DNA from: Candidatus Latescibacterota bacterium
Lineage (GTDB): Bacteria > Latescibacterota > UBA2968 > GCA-2709665
Assembly (NCBI GenBank): GCA_965203805.1
Contig: OZ241917.1
Coordinates: 192,001 to 256,000, forward strand
Length of the DNA stretch: 64,000 nt
Direction: 5' to 3'
A model generated the notes under the pieces. It ran no database searches. It saw nothing but the letters and a program-made list of their open reading frames with translations, and had not been told where the DNA came from. Of the stretch, positions 29,511 through 59,876 are shown in pieces (positions within the stretch are counted from its first letter, which is position 1; every line of letters starts with the position of its first letter). The position numbers were made by a program, and so were the translations under genes.

Positions 29511-29642
29511 GTGACCCCCGACGACAAGCGCCTCATTGAAAATGCCTTCCCGCTCATGCAGATTTCTCTCGACTCCGTACACGAGAAGAACGTGCAGTAC
29601 GGGCACATATCCACCCTAAAAATACGGAACAGCCAAAAATGA
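29511..29642 (+). pseudogene. 5' stump of a second DUF1156 methylase allele (43 codons)
   Basis: Translates VTPDDKRLIENAFPLMQISLDSVHEKNVQYGHISTLKIRNSQK*; 27/32 aa identical to the N-terminus of 31537-34719. Its stop overlaps the ATG at 29639. Confidence 0.9.
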
Positions 29643-34719: not shown

Positions 34720-34762
34720 GAGGAACGGTGTACAGCAAATTTGCCAGGAGGTATCAGTGTCT

Positions 34763-37378: not shown

Positions 37379-37380
37379 GC

Positions 37381-37601
37381 GGAAAATTCTGGCCCCCTCA
37401 AGAACACTATGACTTTCCACTTACAATGGACGTCAGACTCCTTTATCTGCCTACTCCATTTTCTTTTCGTTTCACGCGTTGGGATTATGTGGGCTTCCCA
37501 GCAATACGTTTGTGGATTTGCCCGAAATCATTGAGGCGCTTGAGCGATCGATTCCTGAGATTTCGAGCGAAAATGTGGTGAGGATTCATCGACCAATGTA
37601 G
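37381..37601 (+). pseudogene. Decayed DUF5615 (PIN-like toxin) remnant
   Basis: Frameshifted pieces 'QEHYDFPLTMD' and 'GLPSNTFVDLPEIIEALERSIPEISSENVVRIH' resemble the middle and C-terminus of DUF5615 proteins. Confidence 0.4.
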
Positions 37602-37637
37602 AGTTATTTACAGTGTATTGGAAACGACGAGGACGAT

Positions 37638-40600: not shown

Positions 40601-40958
40601 ACGTGCTCGGTGGATCGAGCTCAGCCCTGACAGCGTTGAGTGGCCGTGCGGTATTGGCAATGCACAGCATGTAATTCTGCAGATTCCGTTGCAGAAGGGC
40701 GTCGGAGAAGCTGGCGGCGGATCATATGGAACCGGGGATCAACCAAAGGGCGCGCTCCGTGCTGAAGCCGTACTTGAAGCCAATGGTATTCAGGACCTGG
40801 CGGATCAGATTCCGGACATGACTAAAACTTCGATCGGCACGGATCTCAAATTTACCGTCCGGGTTGATTTGGGGGGAGAGAAATCGCCTGATCCGAAAAC
40901 GGTGGAGAAAATCAATGAACTGCTTTCCGAGGTGTCGGATGAGTTTAAGTTGGAGTGA
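37638..40958 (+). CDS. DUF499 AAA+ ATPase (restriction-like system)
   Basis: 'KPWHEVV', 'FAADL', 'FFALTY', Walker A 'YGGGKTH', Walker B 'VLLDE', 'LRRRFF', 'YPFHP', 'FQRTRG'. Confidence 0.92.
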   Translation: MSIRPSIKPWHEVVQLRDDLRSGELPLAIFAADLYDVVMQKGSRPAYERPEDFFALTYATLNLRELVKDVAMRLSGQSDKAYRKLSVNYGGGKTHTLIALRHLAYNPDNLPDLPSVKDFDAHIGFRMPKARVVALCFDKIDLEKGVETLGPCGEIRMLKHPWSILAFQLAGADGLRLIHADGGDEERETPPAEPLLAELLSRPQAEELSTLVLLDEVLMYVRTLVESHPDSRGRLVSFFQYLTQAVVKVDRCAMVASLLASDPRKHDEFGNELLRDVGDVFGRQMEEDASPVSKEDVAEVLRRRFFKPESIRDPGKFRPVVTSIVGSIATLDEQTAKERGAAEERFLASYPFHPDLTEVFYTRWTQLEGFQRTRGILRTFAIGLRDAETWDTSPLVGPNILLADPEKEPLAEAASELASFASVDAATGKHQEWRPILEGELTKARAIQTEATGLSHREMEQAVIAVFLSSQPIGHKALTRELVLLIGAANPDKIELEKALRRWIELSWFLDEAEVATGEDGSDRQLPRAWRLGNRPNLRQMHHDACSNRVPPPLVDAQVIDAIEKQRSLTSGAAAAGATVHNLPERPRDIGDDGKFHYAVLGSDAVSESGKPSSVARRFIDEKTASDRPRVNRNAIVLAVPSKDGLDALRVRVREHLGWMEVGEQLKEQPIDPIREQMLSSETRASQRRIPEAVTQAYSIVVTVNESNDVHAFRVVVTDEPLFTTIKADKRARIQEAPINSEAMMPGGPYDLWREDEPSRRVRDLVGAFAQFAKLPKMLRHKEILDTVVQGVQEGIWVAQVSRPDRTIRTFWRTPIDDTALQDPGLEVFLPEAATLSELAPELLVHNQLPGLWGSDELTVQDVYDYFSGGHTVVVPREGYEETIVIPKCDSKDVEGAISQAVEQGQVWLTAGPASILKEPLPPGVLTASAVLRPPPEGIDVTQLMPQSIPGAWVEGKANALAISATLSAQWGMTLPWSTVESVIDSGIRARWIELSPDSVEWPCGIGNAQHVILQIPLQKGVGEAGGGSYGTGDQPKGALRAEAVLEANGIQDLADQIPDMTKTSIGTDLKFTVRVDLGGEKSPDPKTVEKINELLSEVSDEFKLE

Positions 40959-40966
40959 AAAGTAAC

Positions 40967-41010
40967 ACCCGAAAGACGTCGTATCCTCTTGTCTTTGGGT
41001 AGTCCTTTTT
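40967..41010 (+). terminator. Possible terminator after the DUF499 gene
   Basis: ACCCGAAAGAC...GTCTTTGGGT stem (one bulge), followed by AGTCCTTTTT. Confidence 0.45.
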
Positions 41011-41068
41011 CCAGATTATCTCTGTCAGCATCAGGTCACGATGGATAAACCTCAAGGGATGCCACAAT

Positions 41069-42028
41069 ATGCCAACCCAAGACCCAAACGACCTGTCTTT
41101 TGACTTCGATGTCTGTCTGTCCTTCGCTGGCGAAGAAAGAGAATATGTCTACCAAGTGGCCAACCAGCTTCGGGAGCGCGGCATTCGGGTTTTTTACGAC
41201 AAATACGAAGATGCCACATTGTGGGGTAAAGATCTTTACGCGCATTTGGATGATATTTATCGTCATTCGGCGCGTTACTGCGTTATGTTTATCTCGAAGC
41301 ACTACGCAAAGAGACTGTGGACGAACCACGAACGACGGAGCGCCCAAGCTCGGGCGTTGAAGGACAATGCCGAGTACATTCTTCCTGCACGATTTGACTC
41401 AACGGAGATTCCAGGACTCCCCGGCACGATCGGATATGTCGATCTCCGCGAAATTAAAATGGAACGGCTCGTAGAGATGATTACGGAGAAGATCGGCCCA
41501 AGGCAAAACTTCAGTTACCTGCCACCTGTCCCCGATCGTCTTTTTCATTCCCTAGCCGTCAAAGACAAAACTGACCAAGATTTCGTACATCGAAGTGCGT
41601 GTAGTTTTCTCGAGTCACTAGGCAGAATGTCTAAAGAAGAACGCAGTGTCACATTTCAATTCGTCCTTAACGCTTGTCTAGAAGAGCTTCCCGATAATTT
41701 GCATATTAACATTGACTTACTCAGACGATACACCGGTTCCACTCCACAACGGCTTCGTCGTATACTGGGCGGCCTTCAATCCTTGGGATTCGAATCCCTC
41801 GTCCGAGATGATGAAGAGACAAGGCCTGGCCGGATTGGTAAGTCTGAAATGTTAGTTCTGCGATGGCACGATATGAAATACAACGGAATGGGAAATGCCA
41901 CGGATATTATCTACTCCATGATTCAAGGCGCTACTGAGGGATATTGTCACGAACACGCGATGTCGGCACTTGATCGGCTCGATTTTTCACAACTTGGAAC
42001 TGCATCCACAGAAATTGATGAACATTGA
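41069..42028 (+). CDS. TIR-domain protein
   Basis: 'FDVCLSFAGEER', 'VFYD', 'LWGKDL', 'FISKHY...WTNHE' (catalytic Glu), 'YILPARFD'. Confidence 0.9.
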   Translation: MPTQDPNDLSFDFDVCLSFAGEEREYVYQVANQLRERGIRVFYDKYEDATLWGKDLYAHLDDIYRHSARYCVMFISKHYAKRLWTNHERRSAQARALKDNAEYILPARFDSTEIPGLPGTIGYVDLREIKMERLVEMITEKIGPRQNFSYLPPVPDRLFHSLAVKDKTDQDFVHRSACSFLESLGRMSKEERSVTFQFVLNACLEELPDNLHINIDLLRRYTGSTPQRLRRILGGLQSLGFESLVRDDEETRPGRIGKSEMLVLRWHDMKYNGMGNATDIIYSMIQGATEGYCHEHAMSALDRLDFSQLGTASTEIDEH

Positions 42029-43130: not shown

Positions 43131-43480
43131 ATGACTCACATTACCGACACTTTAATCGACGACATGGTTCAAGCGATCGTCGACGAAGTGGATCCCGAGC
43201 AGGTGATCCTCTTTGGCTCCCGCGGGCGCTGCGGGAGGGTAACGTGCTCTATGAGCGACGTTAAGTGTGCCAGGATGCTTCTTCGGGCGGCGGAGCGCGG
43301 GATATAACCGCACGCAGATTTATGTGCGGTCCGAGCGATTACAGGCCCTCCGCCTTGCCGCGTCGCAACCATAGTGTTGGCCCCGATGCCGAGCCCATTG
43401 ATCGACAGGACGCTCTAGCACTCGTAGAGACACTGAGGGGACACGTTGGGCCAGAGTTACCAGAAGCGGAGGCCGGGTGA
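43131..43480 (+). pseudogene. MNT-HEPN toxin-antitoxin remnant
   Basis: MNT N-terminus 'MVQAIVDEVDPEQVILFGSRGR' ends abruptly, followed by HEPN-like pieces 'MSDVKCARMLLRAAER' and 'AEPIDRQDALALVETLRGHV'. Confidence 0.7.
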
Positions 43481-44661
43481 TGGCGTGGCCCATGGCGGAA
43501 TTGAACACGGTAGCCGAAATTCGGGGAGGAGCCACCCCGCGGCGCGACAACCCGATATACTGGAATGGAGACATCCCCTGGGTTACACCTACCGACCTGC
43601 CAGCGCTTGGGGAGGGCATTTCAGAGCTGGATAGTACCACAGAAGCGATCACCAACGAAGGACTTGCGTCCTGCTCAGCCCGCCTTCTTCCGCCCGGGAC
43701 GGTTCTGTTCTCTTCGCGTGCGACGATTGGAAAAGTCGGAATTGCAACTGTCCCGCTCGCGACGAACCAGGGATTCGCAAATTTCATACCTAAATCTGGA
43801 GTGGAATCGCGTTATCTCGCATGGTGTCTTCATCACGCCGCTGATCGGGTCGCAGGGCTCGCCGGCTCGACAACGTTTAAGGAGGTCTCAAAGAGCTCAT
43901 TTGGGCGTTTTCGCATCCCAATCCCACCACTCTCCGAACAACGCCACATCGTCGACATCCTCGATCAGGCCGACCGCCTCCGCCGTCTCCGAGCCGAAGG
44001 CGATGCCAAAGCAGCGCGCATTCTGCCAGCCCTTTTTATCGAAATGTTCAGTGATCCGGCGACAAATCCGATGGGGTGGCCAGTCAGGCCCTTTGACAGT
44101 GTCTGTGAGTCTCGACTTGGCAAGATGCTGGATCAAAAACAGCAGACTGGCCGACATCGACGTTTTTATCTTAGGAATGCGAATGTTTATTGGGATCGGT
44201 TGGACCTTCGCGAAGTTCTTGAGATGGACTTCGACGAGGCAGACCGCGATGAATTCAGACTAAGGAAGGGAGACGTCCTGATCTGTGAAGGTGGAGAGGT
44301 TGGTCGTTGCGCCATTTGGAATGACGAGTTACCGGAGTGCTACTTCCAAAAAGCCCTCCATCGAGCACGTCCCTTTCCGAGCACTGCGACTTCTGAGTAT
44401 ATCGTATTTCTATTTCTGTTGTTGGCGCAGCGCGGCGCTTTGCTGGACGCCGCCTCCAAGGTGACATTTTCGCACTTAACAGGCGTAAAGTTGAAAGGGC
44501 TGGCAATTCCAGTACCGCCTTTCCATCTTCAGGAACGATTCTCTTCGAAGGCGCGCGCGACAAAGAATGCTCTGGAACCGGCCGCATTGGCACAGGATAG
44601 AATCAGTTTGGCGAATACGGTCCTCTTGAACCGCGCTTACTCCGGTACACTGACAGCTTGA
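43477..44661 (+). CDS. hsdS: Type I restriction-modification specificity subunit (orphan)
   Basis: Two TRDs ('GGATP...YWNGDIPW', 'SSRATIG', 'NQGF'; 'LGKMLD', 'GDVLICEGGEVGR') with conserved 'IPIPPLSEQ..IV', 'NPMGW', 'IPVPP..LQ'. Confidence 0.92.
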   Translation: MMAWPMAELNTVAEIRGGATPRRDNPIYWNGDIPWVTPTDLPALGEGISELDSTTEAITNEGLASCSARLLPPGTVLFSSRATIGKVGIATVPLATNQGFANFIPKSGVESRYLAWCLHHAADRVAGLAGSTTFKEVSKSSFGRFRIPIPPLSEQRHIVDILDQADRLRRLRAEGDAKAARILPALFIEMFSDPATNPMGWPVRPFDSVCESRLGKMLDQKQQTGRHRRFYLRNANVYWDRLDLREVLEMDFDEADRDEFRLRKGDVLICEGGEVGRCAIWNDELPECYFQKALHRARPFPSTATSEYIVFLFLLLAQRGALLDAASKVTFSHLTGVKLKGLAIPVPPFHLQERFSSKARATKNALEPAALAQDRISLANTVLLNRAYSGTLTA

Positions 44662-44853
44662 ATCGAGAACTGTGCTTGAGTGAATCAGGTGCAACAAAAG
44701 CGGAAAATTGCCGAATTGTGGGGGGCCGGGGGCCGTCAATAAGCAACACGGGAGTCGGCAGGAATGCCGGAGTCCTTAGCGGGGTCGCCGGGTTGTGCCG
44801 AACAATGACTCGAATACATACCGTGATCGAACACCTGGAACCAGATTGCCGCG

Positions 44854-46566
44854 TTGGTGACCGTCATGACAAGACAAGATGTTGTGAATGGAACACAGTG
44901 TGACGCCAAAGATCTAGTGAAAAGTCGCTCGCTTGAAAATTCGACGGTGGATCCTAGACGACTCCGAGGAGTATATTACACGCCGGACGCAATAGCGGGC
45001 CTCTTGGCAGAATGGGCGATCGCAGCGGAGCCAGGCACTGTACTGGATCCCAGCTTTGGCGGATGCGCGTTTATGAACGCGGCAACGAGAGTCTTAGCTA
45101 GCAGGGGTATCTCGTATCCCGGGCGTTTAGTTTTCGGCGTAGACGTTGAACCCTCTTGCTTGGAATATGTACGCGCAAGCACAAATCTCGTTGAGACAAA
45201 CTGCACGATCAACGACTTCTTAACTCTTTTGCCCGAGGATATGCATGGTGCTCCGTTTCAGGCGGTTATCGGCAATCCGCCATACGTGCGTCACCATTGG
45301 CTCAAAGGAACCACCAGAGAGGCTGGCAGCACAGCCATAGAAGCCACGGGGGTAAACCTTTCCGGCAGGGCGAGCGCGTGGGCATATTTCCTGATTCACA
45401 CAATGAACTTTATTGCAACGAATGGTAGACTTGCGCTGCTTGTTCCCGAAGCAATCCTTCAAGCCGACTACGCTACCGCAGTCAGAGACTTCCTCCGAAG
45501 TTCCTTTAGTCATGTTTGCCTCGTTCACGTTCGCGATCGTTTATTTGAGGACACCGACGAGGCTGTTGTCGTGGTCGCTGCTTCGGAATATGGAGGCAAC
45601 GGTGGCCTTCTGCGTGTTGAAGCAGTCGAGTGCTCAGAGGAACTGGAGGCGGTTCTAAATGCTCCAAGCAGCCGGAAAGCTAGTTTACAACTCGTAACTT
45701 CGAAAGGTCGTCGCGTTGAGTCGCTGACTTTGGAAGTGCTTAGTGAATTAGAGCAACACCCGTCAGTACGGCAGATCCATGATTTCGCGACTGTGAAGGT
45801 TGGCGTGGTGACAGGTGCTAATCAACACTTCATCCGCAATGACAATGACATGAAGCACCTCGGTGTCCCCCAAGAATTTTGGGAGCGGCTAATTTCACGT
45901 ACGCGATGGCTTTCAGGATTGGAATTCACTGAAGAAGATCTTCATCGACTCGCGGACGCAGGCCATCATACAATATTGGTTCGCCCTCTGTCAACGATTG
46001 AAGAGTCTTCCGGCATCCAGCAGTGGATTGCGGAAGGCATGGAGGCAGGAATTCACGAGCGGTACAAATGTAAACTGCGACGTCCCTGGTATCGTGTCGA
46101 CTTACAGGCTGCACCGGATGCCTTCGCTACATGCACCCGTCTGGGCGCTCCCCTGCTCGTACTAAACCTAGCAGGCTGCCGATGCACCAATGCACTCCAT
46201 GCGATGTATTGGCATCAGGGAATCGAGGTCTCGCCGTCGGCCATCTCTGTAGGGTTCCTCACAAGCGCGGTCAGTGTCTGGGCCGAACTCCACGGCCGTC
46301 GGTACGGAGGAGGCGTTTTGAAGATCGAACCTAGCACCTTGAACCGAACGCCGGTACCGCTCGTTGAGAATTCGGAAGGTGCTTTCGACGAATTGAATCA
46401 ACTCATTCGATATGGCCGAGAAGCCGAAGCCAGGGCGCTGGCGGACGATCTGGTTCTTGGAGACCGATTGGGATTAACGAAGAAAGATATCCGGCGACTA
46501 CAGCGGGCACGCACGCAATTGATGGCCCAACGCCGACCCGTCAGAAATGGAAGTGACCATGCCTAA
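44854..46566 (+). CDS. N6-adenine DNA methyltransferase (gamma class, Eco57I/HsdM-like); start may be 44866
   Basis: 'GVYYTP', motif I 'LDPSFGGCAF', 'GVDV', catalytic 'GNPPYVR', 'GVVTGAN', 'GRRYGGGVLKIEP'. Confidence 0.9.
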   Translation: MVTVMTRQDVVNGTQCDAKDLVKSRSLENSTVDPRRLRGVYYTPDAIAGLLAEWAIAAEPGTVLDPSFGGCAFMNAATRVLASRGISYPGRLVFGVDVEPSCLEYVRASTNLVETNCTINDFLTLLPEDMHGAPFQAVIGNPPYVRHHWLKGTTREAGSTAIEATGVNLSGRASAWAYFLIHTMNFIATNGRLALLVPEAILQADYATAVRDFLRSSFSHVCLVHVRDRLFEDTDEAVVVVAASEYGGNGGLLRVEAVECSEELEAVLNAPSSRKASLQLVTSKGRRVESLTLEVLSELEQHPSVRQIHDFATVKVGVVTGANQHFIRNDNDMKHLGVPQEFWERLISRTRWLSGLEFTEEDLHRLADAGHHTILVRPLSTIEESSGIQQWIAEGMEAGIHERYKCKLRRPWYRVDLQAAPDAFATCTRLGAPLLVLNLAGCRCTNALHAMYWHQGIEVSPSAISVGFLTSAVSVWAELHGRRYGGGVLKIEPSTLNRTPVPLVENSEGAFDELNQLIRYGREAEARALADDLVLGDRLGLTKKDIRRLQRARTQLMAQRRPVRNGSDHA

Positions 46567-48889
46567 GTTTACTGTCGACACGCACTTGTTTCGCGAGTTG
46601 GGGGAGCTGTTGGTCGGGCGCGACTCAACCGCGCTCATCGAACTGATCAAGAACGCCTACGATGCCGATGCGACCGAGGTTACCGTCTATGGAGAGCGGC
46701 TCGATAGTCTAGATGAAGGCGGCATTCTGATTACCGATAACGGGGTCGGTATGACCGCGGATAATTTTGAGAACGGATTCTTGCGGATCGCTTCTAGGAT
46801 GAAAGAGCACGGAGAGCGGCGATCCAACGTATTTCAACGTCGTTACACCGGCGCCAAGGGAATCGGCCGACTCGCCGCCCATAAGCTTGCCAGAAAGCTC
46901 GACGTAGATAGCGTTCCGCGAGACTCTGAGCCCGAGGGGCTTCAAGAAATCGTGCACGCCGAGATAGATTGGGATAAGATCGAGGGGTACGAAATTCTGG
47001 ATGAACTTGACGCTACCGACGCGATTCGTCTGGAAACGAAGACGGTGCACGAAAACGCCGTTCCCGGCACGACGCTCGTTCTCTCTCGGCTGCGGCGAGT
47101 CTGGACAGAAGTTGAGCGTGCGAGGTTTTTTGCCGAGGTCCAATCTTTCGATCCTCCCTCATTCCTACGCGAGCCGCTCCCTCGATCAGTCGTCGAAAAA
47201 CCACTGCTGTTCGACACGCCGACTGTCCGGGACCATGGTAACGACGCTGCGGCCTCCTCATTCAAAGTGAATCTTGAAGGGGACTTTGCTGCTGGCGAGA
47301 ACTACTGGGCGCTCGTTGCCGAGGTTGCGACTTGGGTGCTGGAGATAACGGCAGTTGCCGGCAGCGACGAAGTGCATTTTGCCATTGCGCCAACGAAAAG
47401 AACACGCAAGGATAACCCGGAAGCGAGGGAGTACTACCATTCGATCCGTCATCCCACTCCCGGAAAGGGTCCGCATTTCGAGGCACGTATCCTGGTCAGA
47501 GAAGGGCGCGTTAGCGGCAGCCGGGACCAGCGGGTGTGGGCGACGCGAGTCAGCGGAATCCGAGTTTATCTGGAAGGTTTTCGCGTCTTACCCTATGGCG
47601 AGCAACAGGACGATTGGCTCTCGATTGACGCGGACTATACGAGACGCCCGCGGCAACTCGAGATGCTTCAAGAACTCCGTCTTGGTGCAGAAGCGACCGA
47701 CCCCGACGAGGGCCTCATTCGCGTGCCGAACAACAACTACTTTGGAGCGGTTTTTCTTATCCAGGAACGCTGTCCCAATCTTCGTGTTCTCGTGAACCGA
47801 GAGGGATTCATCCCCGAGGCCGGATTTGACACATTGGTGAAACTCGTGCGGACAGGAATCGATTTTTGCACGCGCGCGAGGGCAGCAGCGGCCCACGCGC
47901 GCCGCCAACGAAGGAAGGAAGACCGTCGTCGAGAACCAAAGGCCGCATTGGGTCAGACGGGAGAGGTAGAAGCCAGTGGAGCTACAGACGAGGCGATTGA
48001 GGAGCTTGCGGCGCCCAACCGGCTTCGAGGTGCGGTTCAGCTCATGAAAAAAGCTCGCGTGCACCTCAGCGCGGGAGATACCACAACAGCCGAAGTCACC
48101 ACTAACGCGGCCCTGCAAGAACTAGGCGAAGCGACTGATCTCGTCGAGGACCTGTGGTCCGAACGATCTCTCCTGCACATCCTTGCGTCCGTGGGAACTC
48201 AGATGGCCGCTTTCGTCCATGAAATCAACGCCTTGATCGGAGCGGCACAAACCATCGAACAGGCCCTGGAATGCGTCCTCAAAGAGAAAGGGCTGTCTCA
48301 AGAACGGCGCCGAACGCTAAGGGAGATAGTTACGGTCGCCACGGACCTGAAGCGTGGGCTGGAGCGCCAGGCTGCCTATCTGATAGACATCGAAACGCCC
48401 GACGCACGCCGCCGCCGTTCGCGCCAGCGTTTAAGCGAACGCTTCGAAGCTGCGGTTCGCCTCGTTAGGCATCAAGCGGACCGCCGAGACATTGACATCG
48501 ACAATCAGATTCCATCTGAATTAAGATCTCCCCCGATGTTTCCTGCTGAGGTTACGGCGGTATTTGCCAATCTCCTGACCAATGCGGTTAAAGCCGCTGG
48601 AGAGGATGGACGTATCCGTGCTTCGGCATCCAGTGAAGGCAATCAAGTACAGATTCGTATTCAGAACACCGGTGACGCCGTCAATCTTGATGAATCAGAG
48701 CGCTTGTTTAAGCCATTCGAGTCGACGACATTGGAAGTAGACTCAGTATTGGGTCAGGGAATGGGGCTGGGGTTACCGATTACACGGAACCTGTTGGATA
48801 ACTATGGGGCGTTAATAGATTTCGTCGATCCAACCGATCCGTTCGCGACGGCTATTGAGATCACCTTTCCAGGCAGGAGTCAACCTTAG
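46559..48889 (+). CDS. GHKL (MORC/MutL-like) ATPase fused to a histidine kinase
   Basis: N-terminal GHKL motifs 'ELIKNAYDADA', 'DNGVGM', 'GAKGIGRLA', 'GTTL'; C-terminal H-box 'FVHEIN', N-box 'NLLTNAVKA', F-box 'LFKPFEST', G2 'GMGLGL'. No TM segment. Confidence 0.88.
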   Translation: MPKFTVDTHLFRELGELLVGRDSTALIELIKNAYDADATEVTVYGERLDSLDEGGILITDNGVGMTADNFENGFLRIASRMKEHGERRSNVFQRRYTGAKGIGRLAAHKLARKLDVDSVPRDSEPEGLQEIVHAEIDWDKIEGYEILDELDATDAIRLETKTVHENAVPGTTLVLSRLRRVWTEVERARFFAEVQSFDPPSFLREPLPRSVVEKPLLFDTPTVRDHGNDAAASSFKVNLEGDFAAGENYWALVAEVATWVLEITAVAGSDEVHFAIAPTKRTRKDNPEAREYYHSIRHPTPGKGPHFEARILVREGRVSGSRDQRVWATRVSGIRVYLEGFRVLPYGEQQDDWLSIDADYTRRPRQLEMLQELRLGAEATDPDEGLIRVPNNNYFGAVFLIQERCPNLRVLVNREGFIPEAGFDTLVKLVRTGIDFCTRARAAAAHARRQRRKEDRRREPKAALGQTGEVEASGATDEAIEELAAPNRLRGAVQLMKKARVHLSAGDTTTAEVTTNAALQELGEATDLVEDLWSERSLLHILASVGTQMAAFVHEINALIGAAQTIEQALECVLKEKGLSQERRRTLREIVTVATDLKRGLERQAAYLIDIETPDARRRRSRQRLSERFEAAVRLVRHQADRRDIDIDNQIPSELRSPPMFPAEVTAVFANLLTNAVKAAGEDGRIRASASSEGNQVQIRIQNTGDAVNLDESERLFKPFESTTLEVDSVLGQGMGLGLPITRNLLDNYGALIDFVDPTDPFATAIEITFPGRSQP

Positions 48890-48891
48890 TC

Positions 48892-50004
48892 ATGAAGAAG
48901 ATCAATAGGCCATCAATTCTTGCAATTGACGATAAACCTGATGAATTGATTCCTCAATTCGCTCTAGATCTGAATAGCCGCGTAGCGGCACGTGTAATTC
49001 ATCCTCAGGATGTAGATATATCGGACCTTGAAGATGCCGATCTGGTTCTGGTGGACTATCGCCTGGACAGTTGGCGGGAAAGGGACGTTCTCTCGACCGC
49101 TTCACTACAGCCAGCAACGGGAATGGCTCTAGCGACTATTCTGAGAGAGCTGGTAGATAAAAATGAAAGAGATAGATTGACGGCATTTGCGTTGCATACG
49201 GCTCATCTCGGCGATATTAGAGGCCGTTTTCCTTCAGGGACGGCTCAACACGTTCTTGCGCGTCTGAACAACCTGGAGTGGATTTTTCCTAAGACAGAAC
49301 CTAATCGTCATTACCAGATGCTTCTTCTTGCGAAGGCCGTACAACGACTTCCTGACCGATGGCCGGATAACTCGACTTCAACGGCAAGGCAGCTTCTCGA
49401 TATGGATGAGGACGACGATTCGTTTCAGAGTTGCTGGCACGATGTTCGAGACTGCCGGGTGCCAATTAATGAGTTGACGACAGGTGGACACGGCATCCTT
49501 TTCATACGATGGTTGCTTCATCAAGTATTGCCGTATCCCACCTTTTTGTGGGCAGAGCATTGGGTTGCGGCGCGCCTTGCAATTTCGGTTGGTGTCCTTC
49601 GCGATATACTGGCGGGAGATAGTCTTTTGGCTAAAGACTTGAAAGCCATGCGCTATTCTGGGATTCTGGCGGGATTTCTCGGAGTTAGGTGGTGGCGAGG
49701 TGCTCTCGAGGACTACGTTTGGAAATTATCAGGAGGATCCACGGCTGATGCACAACTATTGCGGAACGCCCTAGTCAAGCGTGCAGGGGTGGATTTGGAT
49801 CAAATTGACGCGCATCCTGCAGTCGTTTGTATGGACAGGGATTTACAGCCCACCGGCAAGTTTTTAACGCCAATGACCGCGATTGCTATCCACCCGGACC
49901 ACTGGCCCCCATTTGCTGACGCAGCCTGGATAGACATCGAAACCGTGAGACATGACACTACTTTGCTGTCCATGGTGGATCCTCTTGACCCTCGCCTTGA
50001 ATGA
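48892..50004 (+). CDS. Response-regulator receiver domain + uncharacterised C-terminal domain
   Basis: 'ILAIDD', phospho-acceptor 'DLVLVDYRL', 'TGMAL', 'LHTAH', 'IFPK'; no HTH output domain recognised. Confidence 0.78.
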   Translation: MKKINRPSILAIDDKPDELIPQFALDLNSRVAARVIHPQDVDISDLEDADLVLVDYRLDSWRERDVLSTASLQPATGMALATILRELVDKNERDRLTAFALHTAHLGDIRGRFPSGTAQHVLARLNNLEWIFPKTEPNRHYQMLLLAKAVQRLPDRWPDNSTSTARQLLDMDEDDDSFQSCWHDVRDCRVPINELTTGGHGILFIRWLLHQVLPYPTFLWAEHWVAARLAISVGVLRDILAGDSLLAKDLKAMRYSGILAGFLGVRWWRGALEDYVWKLSGGSTADAQLLRNALVKRAGVDLDQIDAHPAVVCMDRDLQPTGKFLTPMTAIAIHPDHWPPFADAAWIDIETVRHDTTLLSMVDPLDPRLE

Positions 50005-50741
50005 AGATGAACAGGAAAATAATAATGGCTGGATTACGGTTTAAGGTGATTGAACTTGTACAGGAAACCAAAGCAATGATAACCATGGGAACAGGTTTCT
50101 TTGATTCGCGAACATCGTGGGCATTGGACCAGTTCCTGCGCGATCTCCAAAGGATTGGTAGTAGGGTACATACAGGAAGTTCTCGGTTGGTGCTACAATG
50201 CCTTCACACTAAACCGAGCGACAAATACGAGGCTGGTCGACGTCGAGGTGGTAAACGGATACACGCGGTAATTGCAGGCACTTGGGATCTGCGACCGTTA
50301 GAGAAGCGCGAGATAGAATTCTGCGGGATCGCTTCTACTAAGGTCGAATTGTACGCTTCGGACGATCCGAACGAACGCTTGGCAATGTGGCGTTTGGAAC
50401 TGGGTGCTGAGGACAGCCCGGGCTGCTACGTACACGCTCAGATACTGGGGGACACCGAAAAACCGCCATTCCCCAAATCACTACCGATTCCCAGATTACC
50501 TAGCCTCTTCGTCACTCCAATGAGCGCTGTAGAGTTCGTACTCTGCGAACTTTTCCAGGACGATTGGGCTAAGGCGATCGCTAAAAAGAGTCACGCGGCC
50601 GACGATTGGCGTGCGCTGCAAAAAAAGTGGCTCCATAAGCTGTTTTCATGGTACAGAGAACAAATAGAAAAAGCGGGTTCCTCTTCTTGGGTGACATTAA
50701 AGGAGGCGAAGCCAAAACACAATATGTTTCTTCCACGTTGA
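50001..50741 (+). CDS. Hypothetical protein, last gene of the MTase-HK-REC operon
   Basis: ATGA overlap with the REC gene; 'WRLELG...PGCYVHAQI...IPRLPSLFVTP..AVEFVLCELF' loosely resembles DUF2290-like proteins. Confidence 0.65.
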   Translation: MKMNRKIIMAGLRFKVIELVQETKAMITMGTGFFDSRTSWALDQFLRDLQRIGSRVHTGSSRLVLQCLHTKPSDKYEAGRRRGGKRIHAVIAGTWDLRPLEKREIEFCGIASTKVELYASDDPNERLAMWRLELGAEDSPGCYVHAQILGDTEKPPFPKSLPIPRLPSLFVTPMSAVEFVLCELFQDDWAKAIAKKSHAADDWRALQKKWLHKLFSWYREQIEKAGSSSWVTLKEAKPKHNMFLPR

Positions 50742-50881
50742 ATTCCCAAGGTTGGCATGTCACGTTTGCCGCAGACAACTCCGTTCCAAGGAGTTGAGCA
50801 CCCAGATAGATATCGCTTGCGGACCCGATTTTTTAAGTCTCCTTTGCCGCACAGTGAAATTAGAGACTTCATCGTTAGTCA

Positions 50882-51106
50882 ATGAACAATAAGATAATCA
50901 GCAGGAATCCCGGCATCCTCTGCGAAACCCCCGTGTTCTCTGGGACCAGGGTGTCGATACGTATTCTGTTCGAATACTTGGAAGCAGGGGACCGTCTCGA
51001 AGACTTCCCTGACAGCTACCCCACGGCGTCACGCGATCAGGCGATTGAAGTACTCAAAACCGCGAAGATGACGCTGACCGGGAAATCGGATGAAGCTGTT
51101 GTTTGA
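50882..51106 (+). CDS. DUF433 antitoxin
   Basis: 'IISRNPGILCETPVFSGTRVSI..LFEYLEAG..LEDF...YP'. Confidence 0.88.
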   Translation: MNNKIISRNPGILCETPVFSGTRVSIRILFEYLEAGDRLEDFPDSYPTASRDQAIEVLKTAKMTLTGKSDEAVV

Positions 51107-51215
51107 CAAGTCCCTGCCGATACCGCTCGAAGCTTACTTCCCGGGATCATTTGATATACTTACGGTTTAGCGCATGGACTGGACGAGGTAATCAAACGGT
51201 GAGCTACTGTACCTG
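51090..51215 (+). pseudogene. DUF5615 PIN-like toxin pseudogene
   Basis: MKLLFDKSLPIPLEAYFPGSFDILTV*RMDWTR*SNGELL: two in-frame stops, then loss of frame; overlaps the DUF433 stop as expected for this TA pair. Confidence 0.8.
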
Positions 51216-51265
51216 CCGCTTCCACGCACCGGTACGGCCGGACACAACCGCCGGGAATCTCGGAT

Positions 51266-54200
51266 GTGAAACTTCCCGAGGGCCGGGTGCCAGGTCGCCT
51301 GTTCTGCTGTGTAGTGTGGAATGCAGGTTTATTCAATACTCCAATTATCCATCCAGGAGGTATTATTACACTCTGTAATGAAGAGAATACCATTGCTGTT
51401 CTCCTGGCTACGTCCAACCGGACATATCTGCTGAAGAACCGGGCGCTTCCATCGATCGAGCAGCAGTCCCGTCCCCCGGCCCGGGTGATCATCGTCGATG
51501 ACTCGGGCGATGAGGCTGCCGCCGAACGAACCGGGCTGATAGTCCGGCAATGGCAACGGGCCCGAATGGATGTGGATTTTCTACACAACCGGCGCACGAA
51601 GGGGGCCGCAGGTGCGTGGAACTCAGGTTTAGATCACCTGCTGCGAACATGCTGTGACCCAAGACAACAGTACGTCGCAATCTTGGACGACGATGATCAG
51701 TGGCATCCCCACCATCTGCGCACATGTCTGGCGACCGCCGAGAAAAAAAGCCTTGACATGGTCGCGGCTCCGTTTCTTCGGGTGGAAGAGAACGCCAAGA
51801 CCCTCTTGACGTCTCCGCCAGCATCACTCGATGCGGCGAACTTCTTGGTCGGTAATCCCGGTATCCAAGGCAGTAATCTGGTTTGTCGCCTGAGCGTGTT
51901 ACTTGAAGCAGGTCTGTTCGATGAATCGCTGCCGAGTTGTACCGATCGCGATCTATGCATCCGCATCGCGGAGTTGCCCGGCGTTCGGTACGGTTCCACC
52001 ACGGAACCGACTGTCCATCACTTTGCTTGCGAGTCAAGACCTCGATTGTCAACACCCGGGTCGCACGACAAGGTCAGGGGGCTGGATCGATTCTTCCGCA
52101 AGTACAAGGGGCGTATGTCCGATGTCGAGAAAGTAGCGTTTTGCGCCCGCGCCGAGAGACTTTTCGGATGGAAGGAATCGCCGCAATCACCCGAAGCTGA
52201 AGGTCGTCTGCACGGCGGCCGACTGTCATCAGCCTCTCCAACACTGGCGCCACGTCAGGCACCGCCCCACTTGGTCGTCGGGGTGGTTGCCGACAATGCC
52301 AGGCACAAGGAGGTGGGAAATCTTCTCGACGATCTTCACGGGTTGGCCGATGCGACTGACTTATCGGGCTACGACGTCTTAGTCTTGGAGAACGGCGACG
52401 ATGGGACGCCCAGCGACGAACTACGTACACTAATCGAGCGCGAGCGTAGTAACGGTCTGAGTATCCATTTTATGGACCGTGCGCGGCATTTGCAAGATGC
52501 CACGAGCGGACGGGTTCTCGACGGTGGCGTGAGTAAGGAAGTTAGGTTGTCAATCGCCCATGCGCGGACGGTATTGCAGACGTACCTGTACGCATTCGCT
52601 AAAAGACGGCCAGGTGCGGTGGTTTGGATCATCGATGACGACATGCGGCTCGACCCGTTGTTCATTGAGAAAAATGGAAGCCTACAACGGCGAGCAAATA
52701 AGATTGCACCGATACTCCGAGAGCTTCGCCGACTCCGTGCCGGTGGGATCGTCGATATCGCAATCGGGACGTACACTGGAGCGGCGCCTTTGCCGTCTTT
52801 CGCAACCGTACGTGTTCAGGTCGTCGATTTGATCGCGTCGCTATGGTGGCTGGCGTCCCAGAAATCTACAGACTGCCTTCCGGATCGAGGGATGGAGAAC
52901 GCCACGTGGCGGTCCGGCCGGCGCGACTACTATTACGATCTGTCGCGCAAAGAGACAGATCGATTGGAAGCCCCGTTCTGGATCACGCCCGCGTTTCCCG
53001 GTGAAAAGGTCGGTTCAGCGTTCGTGCGCGTAGCTGGCATTGCGGAGCGGATCCTCGCTGGCGAGCAGGTCTTCCGGCCTCTTGCATTGGAGGCCAATCT
53101 CAATCCTCTCGATTTGATCGGTGAAGGGCTTCAGCGAGGCGGCAATACCTTTGTGCTCGATGTCGAATCTCTGAAGCTGGCCCCTAATCCATCACCGATC
53201 ATCGACGGGCGACCGAGCCGCCGTGCTGACATGATTTGGGCGTTGCTGCAGAAACGCTACTTCAGCCGTCAGATCGTCACCTTGCCGTTCGGCCTGTTTC
53301 ACGACAGATCACATGTCGCCGCCGCCGAATTGGATGTCGCCGACATCGTCGACGATATACGTGGATACGCGATGTTCTCAGCGCTTGAGGACATTCCTGG
53401 GGTATTCAAGATCACCACGGATGACCGGGGCATTCGTTTGTCCGAAGAAATGGTCGTTTGTTTCGCTCAGCGCGTCCACAAATACCTCGAAGAACGGCGG
53501 GCCGCATTTCGCCTTTCATTCTACCGAATCCGCGGTCTGATCCGTGTCTTACGAAGGCTAATGGACGACCCAGAAAATTGGTGGCAGGGAGTTGAATATC
53601 GAACTGCGGTAAGACAACTTCGGACGTTTTCCGAACGCTTGGCCGATTTCTACAAGATGGAGACTCTGAATCGCATTGAACGCGGAACTGAGGAACTTGA
53701 TGCACGCCGCATCGCCGAGTTTCTTGAACATCTGCCAATCGAAATTGAGAGCCATAGAAGGCGGCTTTCGGATATCTCGGCTCTGGTTCACAGCCTTGAG
53801 GGCGACAGGATCGCGAACGCCAAGGCCATTGCCACGCGACTGGCAGTACCCATCGGTGTGCTTAAGGTATTGGGATGCGGCATGGAGGGAGTAGCCCTCA
53901 CCGATGGCACCAGGGTATTTAAAGTCTTCGATTACTGGTGGAAGCGTTCTCACAAACTCTCGGCCCCTGCGTTCCTGCGTTCGCTTGTCGGCGCCTGGAA
54001 GGACACGCACGCTCTCTATCCGCTTCATGATTTCGTCGAGTCGGGACATCAAAAGGTGCTGACGTACTCTTATGAAGTCAGCACACCTTACAAGGGCGGT
54101 CACGGGCCCTCCATGGTTAATCTGGTCGCCGAATGTCGCCGGCATGGTATCGTTTGTCGAAACATCGATCCAGACAACCTGCGTGTAGTTAATGGACGGA

Positions 54201-56647
54201 TTCGGCTGATCGACTACGGTTCGGACATCCACCCATTCGATGAAGATGAATTCCATACGATGTGCCAGCGCGCTTGGCTATCATATCGCTGGGCTGACCG
54301 TTCAAACTTAAAAAACATCATGCGCGAGGCGCTGACGGACGAGAAAATACCTGAACTCGATGGTTTTGAGCGGTTCTACGAGGCAATTCGAAAGGTTACA
54401 GGTCAGCATGAAACGCCGAAGGATGTTGTGCTGAATTTTGTTGAGAAAGCCGAGCGAATTCTCGACTACGGGTGTGGCAAGGGATGGCTTGCCCGAGAAA
54501 TTTCGGACATGGGCAGGGATGTCTTTGGTTACGATCCTGGAGAAGCATACAAGTCGCGTTGGGAGTCACTCTGTCGGAAACGTGAAAACCTACGATTTGC
54601 GGATGATCTGAGTGACGCGTTGGCGGCGGGTCCATTTGATCTTGTTGTTTGCCGTCGTGTGCTTTGCACGATTGAAGACAACGAAGAATTTAGGACGATT
54701 CTCAGCGATTTGCGAAATCTGGTCAGCGAGAGTGGTCGGGTATTGGTTACCGTTTGTGACCCAAATTTCACGTTCGGTGGTTCGACACCTGAGGCTGACC
54801 GTGAACTGCCCCCTGATGCCCGTTACGAGAGTGTCTTCAGGTGGCTCAAGAGGGTGCGCGAAACCGGCAGGGTGCGCCTCGAGGTGCACCGACCCGAGCG
54901 GATGCTTCGGCGAGAATTTGCTCTGGCAGGTCTGGCGGTGTGTCGCCGTGTCGAAGTACCTACAATTGATCTTGAGCGATTCGAACCATCGTCGGACCAG
55001 TTAGTCTTTGAACTCAGCCCAATAGCGCCACTGCCCGGCGAGGTCACGCTAATGATCAAGGCATGTGGCATGGAAGCTGCTACTTTGGATGTGCAGGTTC
55101 GCCACCTTGTTTCACAACTGGAGACCTCGAGGGCTTTTACCGAGCGAATTCTGGTAATCGACTCCCGTGAAGATGAATTCCTTAGGCAACACACCATTGG
55201 GAACTTGGCCGATTTGTATAATGCGGCGCGTCGTTTGGAGCAAGCAGGATGGATCGACCGGATTGTTGACGGGCCGAATGACGTCGACGACACGGTATTG
55301 CTAAACAAGCGGTGGTTCGGAATTCCCTGTCGTACGGCTCACGCTTACAGCGGCGCTCAGATCGCCTCTACGCTGAACGGATTCGATGCATGTTCCACCC
55401 GGTACGTCCTCCAATTGGACGTTGACGTCATGGTTGGCCGACTGGACCGTAGTCATGATTATCTAGCGGAAATGCTTTCAGTGTTGCAGCGCGATCCGGA
55501 AGCGGTCACGGTATCTTTCAATGTAGCGATGGACCATGATCGGCCCTATACGGAAGCGGGAGAGACGGGGGCGTGGCGTGTGGAGGTGCGCGCAGGATTG
55601 ATAGATCTCCAACGTCTTTTCGACGCTCGGCCGCTACCGAACCGGCTCCGCGGAGAACGTCTGGAATTTCACTGGTACCGAGCCCTAGATCGGCAGATCG
55701 CGCAGGGTAGGGGTCGTTCATATCGCGGCGGCGACCGTCGAACCTACTTCGTGCACCCGCCCAATGTTCGCAAGCGCAATATTACTGAGTGGTTCGCAAT
55801 ACTCGACCGCATTGAACACGGTGTGGTCCCGTGCGTTCAATTTGGAAACGTGGATTGGGTCGGCGACAAGGTGAGCTGGATGGGACCGCAGCGGTTAGAA
55901 CAGTTCGTCTTTGTGGTATCGGGTCGTAACGTGCAGCCGGGGCGGTTTCGTCGTTGCATCGAGTCATTGGCTAGACAGAAAGGGGCACAATGGGGCGCCG
56001 TGGTTATTGATGACGGATCGGACCCGATGTTTGCCGAACACTTTGAGATCGCTTGCCGGCCGCTCGTAGAGCGTTGCACGGTCATTCGTAACCGCCGTCG
56101 TTGTGGATTGCTCGTCAACATGGTAACTGCAATTAGGCAGTTATGTGCCGATCCCGAATCGGTCATTGTAACTCTCGATTCTGACGATGCCCTGATCGGC
56201 GATCGCGTTCTGGAAAGACTTGCAGCAGAGTACGATCGGGGAGCCGACGTGACAGTTGGTACAATGCTGCGGATCGACAAGGACGCCAATTATCCGGTTT
56301 GTTTCGATCAGCCGCGGCGACACCGTGGAGGAAACGTTTGGCAGCACCTTCGGTCGTTCAAAAAACGGCTTTTCGATGCCATTCCTGACGATGCACTTCG
56401 GCTCGATGGAGACTATATCGACCTCGCCAATGACTGGGCGTACATGCTGCCGATTGTGGAGATGGCAGACATGCCCGTACATATTGCTGAACCACTTTAT
56501 CTTTACGAACCTTCAAGGATTTGGAAAGGAGCTGATCGAGCACTTCGCGAGGAAGTCATCGCACGCATCGCCGCCAAGGACACGGTGTACCAAGACGAGA
56601 CGTGCAATGCGTACAGCGAAAAAATCGACGCAAGGGTCAGGCGATAA
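51266..56647 (+). CDS. Giant multidomain protein: GT2 + GT-A + kinase-like + SAM methyltransferase + GT-A + GT2 (start uncertain)
   Basis: Acidic GT motifs 'IIVDDS...AILDDDD', 'WIIDDDM', 'LQLDVDV', 'VIDDGS...TLDSDD'; kinase-like 'LGCGMEG...VFK', 'CRNIDPDN', 'LIDYG'; MTase 'ILDYGCGKG', 'FDLVV'. Confidence 0.82.
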   Translation: MKLPEGRVPGRLFCCVVWNAGLFNTPIIHPGGIITLCNEENTIAVLLATSNRTYLLKNRALPSIEQQSRPPARVIIVDDSGDEAAAERTGLIVRQWQRARMDVDFLHNRRTKGAAGAWNSGLDHLLRTCCDPRQQYVAILDDDDQWHPHHLRTCLATAEKKSLDMVAAPFLRVEENAKTLLTSPPASLDAANFLVGNPGIQGSNLVCRLSVLLEAGLFDESLPSCTDRDLCIRIAELPGVRYGSTTEPTVHHFACESRPRLSTPGSHDKVRGLDRFFRKYKGRMSDVEKVAFCARAERLFGWKESPQSPEAEGRLHGGRLSSASPTLAPRQAPPHLVVGVVADNARHKEVGNLLDDLHGLADATDLSGYDVLVLENGDDGTPSDELRTLIERERSNGLSIHFMDRARHLQDATSGRVLDGGVSKEVRLSIAHARTVLQTYLYAFAKRRPGAVVWIIDDDMRLDPLFIEKNGSLQRRANKIAPILRELRRLRAGGIVDIAIGTYTGAAPLPSFATVRVQVVDLIASLWWLASQKSTDCLPDRGMENATWRSGRRDYYYDLSRKETDRLEAPFWITPAFPGEKVGSAFVRVAGIAERILAGEQVFRPLALEANLNPLDLIGEGLQRGGNTFVLDVESLKLAPNPSPIIDGRPSRRADMIWALLQKRYFSRQIVTLPFGLFHDRSHVAAAELDVADIVDDIRGYAMFSALEDIPGVFKITTDDRGIRLSEEMVVCFAQRVHKYLEERRAAFRLSFYRIRGLIRVLRRLMDDPENWWQGVEYRTAVRQLRTFSERLADFYKMETLNRIERGTEELDARRIAEFLEHLPIEIESHRRRLSDISALVHSLEGDRIANAKAIATRLAVPIGVLKVLGCGMEGVALTDGTRVFKVFDYWWKRSHKLSAPAFLRSLVGAWKDTHALYPLHDFVESGHQKVLTYSYEVSTPYKGGHGPSMVNLVAECRRHGIVCRNIDPDNLRVVNGRIRLIDYGSDIHPFDEDEFHTMCQRAWLSYRWADRSNLKNIMREALTDEKIPELDGFERFYEAIRKVTGQHETPKDVVLNFVEKAERILDYGCGKGWLAREISDMGRDVFGYDPGEAYKSRWESLCRKRENLRFADDLSDALAAGPFDLVVCRRVLCTIEDNEEFRTILSDLRNLVSESGRVLVTVCDPNFTFGGSTPEADRELPPDARYESVFRWLKRVRETGRVRLEVHRPERMLRREFALAGLAVCRRVEVPTIDLERFEPSSDQLVFELSPIAPLPGEVTLMIKACGMEAATLDVQVRHLVSQLETSRAFTERILVIDSREDEFLRQHTIGNLADLYNAARRLEQAGWIDRIVDGPNDVDDTVLLNKRWFGIPCRTAHAYSGAQIASTLNGFDACSTRYVLQLDVDVMVGRLDRSHDYLAEMLSVLQRDPEAVTVSFNVAMDHDRPYTEAGETGAWRVEVRAGLIDLQRLFDARPLPNRLRGERLEFHWYRALDRQIAQGRGRSYRGGDRRTYFVHPPNVRKRNITEWFAILDRIEHGVVPCVQFGNVDWVGDKVSWMGPQRLEQFVFVVSGRNVQPGRFRRCIESLARQKGAQWGAVVIDDGSDPMFAEHFEIACRPLVERCTVIRNRRRCGLLVNMVTAIRQLCADPESVIVTLDSDDALIGDRVLERLAAEYDRGADVTVGTMLRIDKDANYPVCFDQPRRHRGGNVWQHLRSFKKRLFDAIPDDALRLDGDYIDLANDWAYMLPIVEMADMPVHIAEPLYLYEPSRIWKGADRALREEVIARIAAKDTVYQDETCNAYSEKIDARVRR

Positions 56648-59866: not shown

Positions 59867-59876
59867 GCCAGTGTAA

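Follow-up and report, generated by a model that had tools for sequence, protein, structure and literature searches.

Do four tightly packed genes of a Candidatus Latescibacterota bacterium form one system, what might that system do, and is it of a kind already described? The genes lie between positions 44854 and 50741, on the + strand, of a 64,000-nucleotide stretch of contig OZ241917.1 (assembly GCA_965203805.1, positions 192,001 to 256,000), which is called the window throughout. They are co-directional, overlapping or abutting open reading frames (ORFs) of 570, 780, 370 and 246 codons, numbered here genes 1 to 4, and encode a DNA methyltransferase, a sensor kinase, a predicted receiver protein and a protein without a recognisable relative outside its own family. 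An initial annotation made from the sequence had proposed them as a candidate new defence system. Our analysis demonstrated that the cassette is a self-contained and conserved unit that moves horizontally and is patchily distributed. It is an unannotated and widespread sister of two described module types, Ambrosia and HEF_HK/Response_reg_2, with the same grammar built from different proteins, rather than a wholly new kind. We consider it probable (roughly 0.6) that the cassette is a phosphorelay-controlled, methylase-linked and horizontally transferred defence of the Ambrosia kind against phages or other mobile DNA.

Linkage, distribution and mobility of the four genes

Homologues of gene 2 begin at the fifth codon of the window ORF (consensus MAKFTVDTH), so the likely start of gene 2 is ATG 46559, which therefore gives an 8-bp overlap with gene 1. 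The stop of gene 2 is followed after a 2-nt gap by the start of gene 3 at 48892, and the stop of gene 3 and the ATG of gene 4 share an ATGA overlap at 50001-50004. Scanning of 44300-51400 for promoters and terminators was uninformative (no terminators, and 4 promoter-like sites where 4.2 were expected), and no tRNA genes were found in the window.

The order of genes 1-2-3-4 was the same in all four loci recovered from genomes (one each from Thermodesulfobacteriota and Poribacteria, two from Latescibacterota), at 52–75% identity and with one locus cut in gene 1. A metagenome set of 80 loci with gene 3 relatives of 33–57% identity gave the same picture, as gene 4 was directly 3' of gene 3 in 57 of the 57 loci with at least 800 nt of downstream room and gene 2 was directly 5' of gene 3 in 49 of the 51 with at least 600 nt upstream, the exceptions being L096, where gene 2 is disrupted, and L097. 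An Eco57I-type methylase was found at one end in 32 of the 34 metagenome loci with complete genes 2 and 4. It lay upstream in 4 loci and downstream in 28, of which 27 had it on the same strand and 1 on the opposite strand, and none was seen in the other 2. All methylases checked in the metagenome loci were of the Eco57I type, and their lineage and position vary (22–49% identity) while genes 2-4 stay joined (45–56% identity). Genes beyond the four differ between loci, and contigs of close relatives lose homology to the window at 50789, just 3' of gene 4. Neither the type I S-subunit gene at 43477-44661 nor the large ORF at 51266-56647 had a match in any of the 84 other loci, so both lie outside the unit. 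This conservation of gene order is far beyond chance.

Several individual loci deserve mention in their own right. L096 has its methylase on the opposite strand in addition to the disrupted gene 2, and in L067 genes 2-3-4 stand between housekeeping-like genes. Two proteins from short contigs are in-frame deletion-fusions, one joining the first ~165 residues of gene 2 to gene 4 from residue ~61 (P0165) and the other joining the first ~293 residues of gene 2 to gene 3 from residue ~45 (P0377); they are either decayed cassette copies or assembly chimeras.

Within the window's phylum, 6 of 168 genomes carried gene 3; in the window's own genus it was absent from all 14 other genomes, whereas 5 of 21 had it in one genus of another family. 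When 401 genomes of the phylum to which genome G168 belongs were searched with the gene 3 profile, G168 alone matched. Members of the family were found in Latescibacterota, Poribacteria, Gemmatimonadota, Thermodesulfobacteriota and others. Plasmids also carry it: pTH2c of Rhizobium sp. TH2 (L100) has a methylase on the other strand followed by genes 2, 3 and 4 and a gene named in RefSeq as a GIY-YIG nuclease, its fourth gene being a gene 4 relative (hhalign probability 96.8%, local HMM E 8e-21), and a copy of the cassette is carried by Clavibacter plasmid pCCa. More distant forms of the same grammar were found on plasmids of Paraburkholderia (helix-turn-helix gene, methylase, kinase, receiver-like gene and a 225-aa gene, beside an integrase), Hymenobacter (kinase, receiver-like gene, a 289-aa gene and N6 methylase, beside a Piwi gene) and the archaeon Halomicrobium. 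Their receiver-like proteins align modestly to the gene 3 profile, over 260 columns in Hymenobacter (E 5.8e-05), 230 columns in Halomicrobium (E 8.3e-05) and the core of the C-domain in Paraburkholderia (E 9.5e-05), and these plasmid alignments include the DD, D and RWW motifs. The G+C content of the window cassette is 0.49–0.58, compared with ~0.62 over the window's first 27 kb.

Defence genes frequently accompany the cassette elsewhere. Among 15 long metagenome loci with 55 flanking ORFs, 7 loci had PADLOC matches at E<=1e-12, in 8 ORFs altogether, covering type I and IIG restriction, LmuB, HEC-05, PDC-S28, PDC-S37 and PifA/QatA-like proteins. A metatranscriptome from a sample with a ~95% identical DNA copy yielded 8 RNA-library contigs that cover the S gene and genes 1-4, one of which bridges the junction of genes 2 and 3 (48582-48945). 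As a separate observation, the RefSeq GIY-YIG nuclease gene of L100 (7842-8771) begins 13 nt after the gene 4 homologue and Pfam finds just DUF4357 at its end; this gene may be an added nuclease of that branch or a mere neighbour.

The methylase, the kinase, the receiver protein and the fourth protein

No 19-residue window reached a Kyte-Doolittle value of 1.6 in any of the four proteins, and all of them therefore look soluble and free of membrane-spanning stretches. Gene 1 matched the Pfam families N6_Mtase (9.6e-14), Eco57I (1.7e-09) and M_Eco57I_C (1.1e-20) and the PADLOC model MTase_II (8.3e-98), and its closest solved chain was M.BseCI (E 9.8e-09). It has the NPPY motif and its own target-recognition domain, its likely start is ATG 44866, and its identity in loci L001-L004 was 58–69%.

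Gene 2 has the architecture GHKL (HATPase_c_3), S5-like domain, DHp and CA. An N-terminal MORC/MutL-type GHKL ATPase at about residues 8-190 (Pfam HATPase_c_3, residues 28-126) is followed by a conserved middle domain (GFRVLPYG..DDW at 344-357 and NREGF at 417-421), a charged helical linker, the DHp domain with H558 and the CA domain at 665-775 (Pfam HATPase_c, 669-775). Residues 547-760 align to DHp and CA of HK853 and ZraS chains, and the N-terminus aligns weakly to MORC2 and MutL. Among 51 gene 2 homologues of 61–96% identity, E32, N36, D64-G66-G68 and G102-G107 of the first ATPase were invariant, as were H558-E559, N679, F721/F724 and G736-L743 of the kinase boxes and the middle motif, and the family numbered 1763 relatives at E<=1e-3. 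Residues 7-190 also matched NCBIfam NF050001 (BbrUII/HgiDII, 5.1e-23) and the PADLOC REase_II model PDLC03419 (4.7e-16); the NF050001 match scored 81.5 bits against a curated cut-off of 550 and covered model positions 2-175 of 659 alone, which leaves gene 2 outside that family. The HEF_HK model PF19191 had no match to gene 2 at E<=10, none at the window locus in a whole-genome search and none among the 120 gene 2 relatives listed of the 1763, and gave 5.1e-27 for the control locus L016.

Gene 3 had no match in Pfam, PADLOC, NCBIfam or PHROGs. Its AlphaFold model, built with 50 homologues, had a predicted local distance difference test score (pLDDT) of 76.8 and showed a CheY-like domain at residues 5-155. 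The best VIA match of this model was 3bre_A (Z 12.4, root-mean-square deviation 2.7 Å, 121 residues aligned) with dozens of further receiver domains at Z 10–12, and Foldseek returned PorX, CheY-like chains and isolated receivers at target template modelling scores of 0.62–0.69. The catalytic quintet was kept in nearly all of 113 gene 3 relatives of 30–56% identity (D13 in 109, D14 in 111, D55 in 113, S/T103 in 110 and K134 in 109). Modelled fold and residues together have the features of a canonical receiver, namely (beta-alpha)5, acidic pair, phospho-Asp, Thr/Ser and Lys, and on the strength of the model we take gene 3 to encode a genuine receiver protein that sequence libraries miss. PF00072 matched weakly in 11 of the 113 relatives and not in the window protein. 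Of the profile searches of the PDB made for the cassette, one (A1) gave 0 matches, another (A2) matches just near E 1 and a third (A4) just weak receiver matches (best E 0.014). The family comprised 410 relatives by word search, and 604 clusters at 50% identity by exhaustive HMMER search at E<=1e-3 (333 at E<=1e-30). The Response_reg_2 model PF19192 had no match in the window protein or genome, passed in 0 of 40 divergent gene 3 relatives and matched weakly in 3 of 113 (best E 0.07), with 1.5e-34 for control locus L016, and hhalign of the gene 3 profile against the L016 receiver protein gave a probability of 0.2%.

The remaining ~215 residues of gene 3 (156-370) were modelled as a helical domain with a small sheet. 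Its conserved residues (R206-W207, P214-Y215-P216, Y255, G257, R266-W267-W268, D336-x-W338-P339 and D366) are aromatic, proline and basic rather than catalytic, and a segment at ~225-240 reads as helix-turn-helix, so that by its sequence the C-domain looks like a binding, helix-turn-helix-like module rather than an enzyme. The structure searches used the whole protein, and the matches listed by Foldseek and VIA were taken up by the receiver domain; the ESM Atlas gave no usable match for the C-domain. A predicted complex of this domain (156-370) with gene 4 scored 0.00 against a mark of 0.32, a result that says nothing either way.

Gene 4 was modelled with confidence (pLDDT 87.8, predicted template modelling score 0.86) as alpha-alpha-beta5-alpha4, that is two helices, five long antiparallel strands and four helices. 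Searches for a relative of this model found a best E of 0.16 against the PDB with Foldseek, nothing at Z>=5 among 48161 representative chains with VIA (best 4.2) and nothing at E<=1e-3 in BFVD. A gene 4 profile found nothing among PDB sequences, and the protein had no match, HNH included, in Pfam, NCBIfam, PADLOC or PHROGs. The protein has 172 relatives. Across a set of 54 distinct sequences (26–64% identity), T70, W95, W130, P140-G141, H145, P164-R165, P167, P173, E183, F185, W189, W203 and P229 each showed conservation of at least 95%. This conservation across divergent sequences makes H145, in the motif HAQI, a good candidate functional residue. The nearest ESM Atlas clusters (0.92–0.94) have no common Pfam family and include one auto-named 'AbiEi antitoxin', which is a lead and no more; these clusters are probably the family's own.

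Relationships of gene 4 to other proteins found beside similar kinases were also considered. The idea that it stands for a C-terminal portion missing relative to the longer Response_reg_2 proteins was rejected (hhalign probability 0.2%), and its comparison with an HNH_2 gene of a like locus gave 0.9%. By eye, gene 4 shares H-x-Q and P-R-L/I-P motifs with the fourth genes on the plasmids of Paraburkholderia and Hymenobacter, but no relationship was significant (hhalign 0.1–0.3%, no BLASTP match; the local HMM gave E 0.067 for L102 and no match for L101). The fourth gene of the Clavibacter plasmid was likewise not significant.

These results agree with most of what the initial annotation had read from the letters. 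Its four tightly coupled genes, with 8-bp overlap, 2-bp gap and ATGA, follow from the ORFs and homologue starts, and the synteny search that it called for found them linked. Its DNA methyltransferase, its soluble gene 2 with two ATP-binding modules and H, N, F and G2 boxes, its receiver residues DD, D, T and K in gene 3 and its candidate catalytic His in gene 4 all recur in the domains, the predicted receiver fold and the conserved residues given above. Two further comparisons that it proposed had mixed outcomes: models of PADLOC 2.0.0 matched gene 1 and the head of gene 2, and none hit genes 3 and 4, while Foldseek found a receiver fold for gene 3 and no match for gene 4.

Described systems and explanations of function

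The initial annotation had also held that no characterised system has this make-up, and this claim did not survive, as the grammar appears in a 2021 survey (PMC8011034) and has been validated in Ambrosia. Ambrosia (AbrR-AbrA-AbrB-AbrC-AbrD) of Pseudomonas aeruginosa combines an XRE protein, an N6-adenine methylase, a histidine kinase with HSP90-like ATPase, a receiver with winged helix-turn-helix and an HNH protein, and is a validated anti-phage system (van den Berg and colleagues, bioRxiv 10.1101/2025.09.30.679545). Its authors report that all five genes are needed, that receiver mutation D60A abolishes defence, that operon reporters are induced on infection and that phage grown on the methylase AbrA alone stays sensitive. 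Both operons are co-directional and contain an N6-adenine methylase, a histidine kinase with HSP90-like ATPase, a receiver with a phospho-Asp near residue 55–60 and a fourth short protein; AbrC has a helix-turn-helix type output, which in window gene 3 is just hinted at, the receiver fold and D55 being present in its model. They differ in that the HipB-like XRE protein AbrR heads the Ambrosia operon and the window has no XRE gene, that the last gene AbrD is an HNH endonuclease where gene 4 has no recognised fold, and that Ambrosia is reported from Gammaproteobacteria where the window's family is from Latescibacterota, Poribacteria, Gemmatimonadota, Thermodesulfobacteriota and others. Upstream of gene 1 we found no XRE regulator of the AbrR type, the region holding just two ORFs, the orphan type I S gene and one of 81 codons (44658-44903). 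The latter was considered as an XRE regulator and rejected; it has no likeness to the XRE gene of plasmid locus L101 and does not look coding. Ambrosia is the sole tested system of the methylase, kinase and receiver grammar.

A second relative was described by Bellieny-Rabelo, Pretorius and Moleleki in 2021, who found, in 644 regions, soluble proteins of HATPase_c_3, HEF_HK and HATPase_c beside Response_reg_2 proteins; most of these regions had a C5 methylase, and HNH_2 or Vsr genes were common in them. The authors proposed a two-component-like system that derives from paraMORCs and has a link to restriction-modification (PMC8011034). We retrieved two true HEF_HK members, of which L016 has a C5 methylase, a 984-aa kinase, a 547-aa Response_reg_2 protein and an HNH_2 nuclease, in the same four-gene order as the window, with a soluble HATPase_c_3, DHp and HATPase_c kinase beside a receiver-like protein and a methylase in both. 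BLASTP of window gene 2 against the L016 kinase aligned the GHKL head at 30% identity over 148 residues (E 1e-09) and the middle motif (E 4e-06), and because head and middle motif are common to both, the sensor halves of the two kinases are homologous. In contrast, PF19191 and PF19192 match L016 and not the window proteins or genome, the kinase is 780 aa in the window and 984 aa in L016, the receiver protein 370 aa and 547 aa, and the methylase is of the N6-adenine Eco57I type in the window and of the C5 type in L016. The fourth slot holds a gene 4 relative in the window clade, HNH_2 in L016 and proteins that could be related to neither elsewhere. By analogy, the combination of a conserved sensor-transducer pair with a last gene that varies would correspond to the effector-slot pattern of other modular defence systems. 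A literature search found no paper on the window's own family.

Prokaryotic MORC/paraMORC GHL ATPases are said to have been placed in restriction-modification neighbourhoods by Iyer, Abhiman and Aravind in 2008. That paraMORC work is cited in PMC8011034 and bioRxiv 10.64898/2026.09.30.754977, and the paraMORC-type group includes GHKL-Shedu VcSduA (PMC12137116) and the GHKL-headed BbrUII/HgiDII enzymes (NF050001). Gene 2 resembles this group in its N-terminal Bergerat ATPase with invariant catalytic Glu and Mg-binding Asn, in its link to a methylase and in its occurrence in defence islands. It differs in that their ATPase is fused or linked directly to a nuclease, whereas the window ATPase is fused to a histidine kinase with output via a receiver. 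Detocs is a defensive two-component system (bioRxiv 10.1101/2023.01.24.525353), and the likeness to it would lie in defence by a His-to-Asp phosphotransfer that runs from a sensor kinase of the cytoplasm to an effector linked to a receiver. Detocs reportedly works with a TPR-type sensor, a buffer receiver of its own and a receiver that is fused to a nucleosidase effector, none of which is present in the window cassette, and it reportedly has no methylase. Our family searches gave no Detocs match, and the inclusion of Detocs models in PADLOC 2.0.0 was unchecked.

Every biochemical step of the favoured mechanism is our inference, as are the signal to which it responds, the part played by gene 4 and the protective or marking effect of methylation. 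Gene 2 would be a dimer held by its DHp bundle, in which the N-terminal MORC/MutL-type ATPase and the middle domain act as the sensor, probably by clamping DNA or a cue of infection in an ATP-driven manner. Because gene 2 has the GHL layout of a transiently dimerising head, a middle domain and a constitutive DHp dimer, a change in the head could pass down the helical linker to the kinase core, much as it does within an ordinary sensor kinase. The sensor would thereby set the kinase state, with H558 phosphorylated and the phosphate passed to D55 of gene 3, and the phosphorylated gene 3 protein would act on DNA via its helix-turn-helix-like C-domain and switch the cassette on, as reported for Ambrosia. 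Gene 4, in the variable effector slot, may then be brought in as the executing protein, and the N6-adenine methylase may supply an epigenetic mark on which the system depends. A simple self-marking interpretation is not safe, because methylation by AbrA did not protect phage and the Ambrosia operon was induced on infection.

Alternatively, the output may be post-translational, as in the model of the initial annotation, where the phosphorylated gene 3 protein binds gene 4 and directly licenses it as an enzyme on unmethylated invader DNA and the methylase protects the chromosome, so that a phosphorelay would gate restriction. We consider this possible and somewhat unlikely. The ATGA overlap and the adjacency of genes 3 and 4 in 57 of 57 loci fit a stoichiometric pair, gene 4 keeps an enzyme-typical polar set (T70, H145, R165 and E183), the N-terminus of gene 2 resembles the GHKL head of BbrUII/HgiDII-type restriction enzymes, and paraMORCs have been proposed as sensors of unmethylated DNA, in work cited in bioRxiv 10.64898/2026.09.30.754977. 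Yet the behaviour of AbrA-grown phage and the infection-induced operon of Ambrosia speak against this model, the gene 4 model is without a recognisable nuclease fold, and the methylase shifts in lineage and position relative to stable genes 2-4, which is awkward if the same DNA site must be read. A more specific proposal is that a MORC/MutL-type clamp, driven by ATP, closes on invading or unmethylated DNA and flips the DHp-CA unit, that phosphate passes to gene 3 and that gene 4, activated by the phosphorylated receiver, is the founding effector enzyme of a new fold, acting through H145, E183, R165 and T70; this combination appears unlikely, and if it were true it would add a new DNA-sensing mode to two-component signalling and a new effector class.

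The cassette could also be a regulatory or addiction module that is not primarily defensive, in which kinase and receiver tune the methylase as an elaborate equivalent of a C-protein and help a selfish methylase cassette to persist. Bellieny-Rabelo et al. (PMC8011034) proposed that such pairs regulate restriction-modification genes, the non-catalytic character of the conserved C-domain residues of gene 3 would suit this role, and so would the mostly housekeeping-like flanks scanned in three loci. We nevertheless find it improbable, since it leaves the strictly linked gene 4 without a role, defence neighbours are frequent, and Ambrosia, the one tested system of the grammar, protects against phage. 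That gene 2 is simply the restriction enzyme of a plain Type II pair, a member of the BbrUII/HgiDII group with genes 3 and 4 as unrelated passengers, is suggested by the NF050001 and PDLC03419 matches to residues 7-190. It is highly improbable and already contradicted by the short span and low score of the NF050001 match, by the rest of gene 2, a DHp-CA kinase whose H, N, F and G2 boxes are invariant, and by the strict linkage of genes 3 and 4 to gene 2.

The preferred interpretation, an Ambrosia-like phosphorelay defence, has its own difficulties, and the following observations weigh against it. Of the two loci in which no methylase was seen, L088 has little room and L067 has room on both sides. 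Pfam, PADLOC, NCBIfam and PHROGs revealed neither a nuclease nor another known effector domain in the four proteins. The helix-turn-helix hint in the gene 3 C-domain is weak, as HTH_3, HTH_31, LacI, YdaS_toxin and HTH_Tnp_ISL3 were matched by one member each of 113, among 25 family rows listed, with a best E of 0.0044. The likeness to Ambrosia is one of architecture alone. The flanks of the other 8 of 15 long metagenome loci had no PADLOC match, and the Pfam-scanned flanking ORFs of L003, L004 and L001 were, AAA-type ATPases apart, mostly housekeeping-like. Finally, the RNA contigs are a mere hint of transcription, because an RNA library can contain DNA.

Genomic neighbourhood and biological meaning

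A low-G+C defence island extends from ~28 kb of the window (27887-42028) and is listed with the cassette features in Table 1. Between this island and gene 1, the S-subunit gene at 43477-44661 is a complete type I specificity (HsdS) gene without adjoining HsdM or HsdR, and it is also adjacent in close relatives from public runs. Just 3' of gene 4 lies a 74-codon ORF (50882-51106), whose product we take, by motif, to resemble DUF433-type antitoxin-like proteins, followed by a short and apparently truncated ORF; this region may be a toxin-antitoxin remnant. The 1793-codon ORF at 51266-56647 combines a glycosyltransferase family 2 domain, an S-adenosylmethionine-dependent methyltransferase domain and a second glycosyltransferase 2 domain. 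Further defence-like genes occupy 57209-62354, starting with an AAA_15/AAA_21 ATPase (PADLOC PDC-M55A/NsnB-like) and a 309-codon ORF without match. Directly after a PrimPol-helicase ORF (59877-61697) comes an ORF of 218 codons that matches C-terminal helicase parts of DrmA/DrmD, and the two are possibly one split gene.

Table 1. Positions in the window of the cassette genes, their key codons and the genes of the upstream defence island.
Feature	Coordinates	Strand	Basis or setting
Gene 1, Eco57I-type (gamma-class, NPPY) N6-adenine DNA methyltransferase	44854..46566	+	Pfam, PADLOC and solved-chain match
Gene 2, soluble sensor kinase	46547..48889	+	Domain calls and invariant residues
H558 codon of gene 2, predicted phospho-accepting His of the H-box (FVHEIN)	48218..48220	+	Invariant H558-E559 in 51 sequences; DHp alignment to HK853 chains
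Gene 3, predicted divergent receiver with ~215-residue C-domain	48892..50004	+	Model fold and conserved residues
D55 codon of gene 3, predicted phospho-acceptor	49054-49056	+	Receiver fold and conservation
Gene 4, 246-aa candidate effector	50001..50741	+	Confident model, conserved residues, linkage to gene 3
H145 codon of gene 4 (HAQI)	50433-50435	+	At least 95% conserved
CBASS-type cyclase	27887-28813		Island
CBASS 2TM effector	28783-29454		Island
OLD/Gabija-like ATPase	29639-31540		Island
HmaB-type DUF1156 methylase	31537-34719		Hma-like trio
DEAH helicase	34673-37378		Hma-like trio
HmaC/DUF499 ATPase	37638-40958		Hma-like trio
TIR-domain protein	41069-42028		Island

The receiver family, with 604 clusters, and the kinase family, with 1763 relatives, are large, and the receiver protein and gene 4 stand outside Pfam, NCBIfam, PADLOC 2.0.0 and PHROGs; current annotation of the cassette therefore amounts to 'sensor histidine kinase + hypothetical proteins'. 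The cassette is also a clean case in which to study a GHL-type ATPase as the input domain of a histidine kinase. Should the proposed working hold, its confidently modelled 246-residue protein of unrecognised fold would be a candidate new effector, and the phosphorelay-controlled, methylase-linked immunity of the Ambrosia type would extend to many non-proteobacterial phyla, to plasmids and, in a distant form, to an archaeal plasmid.

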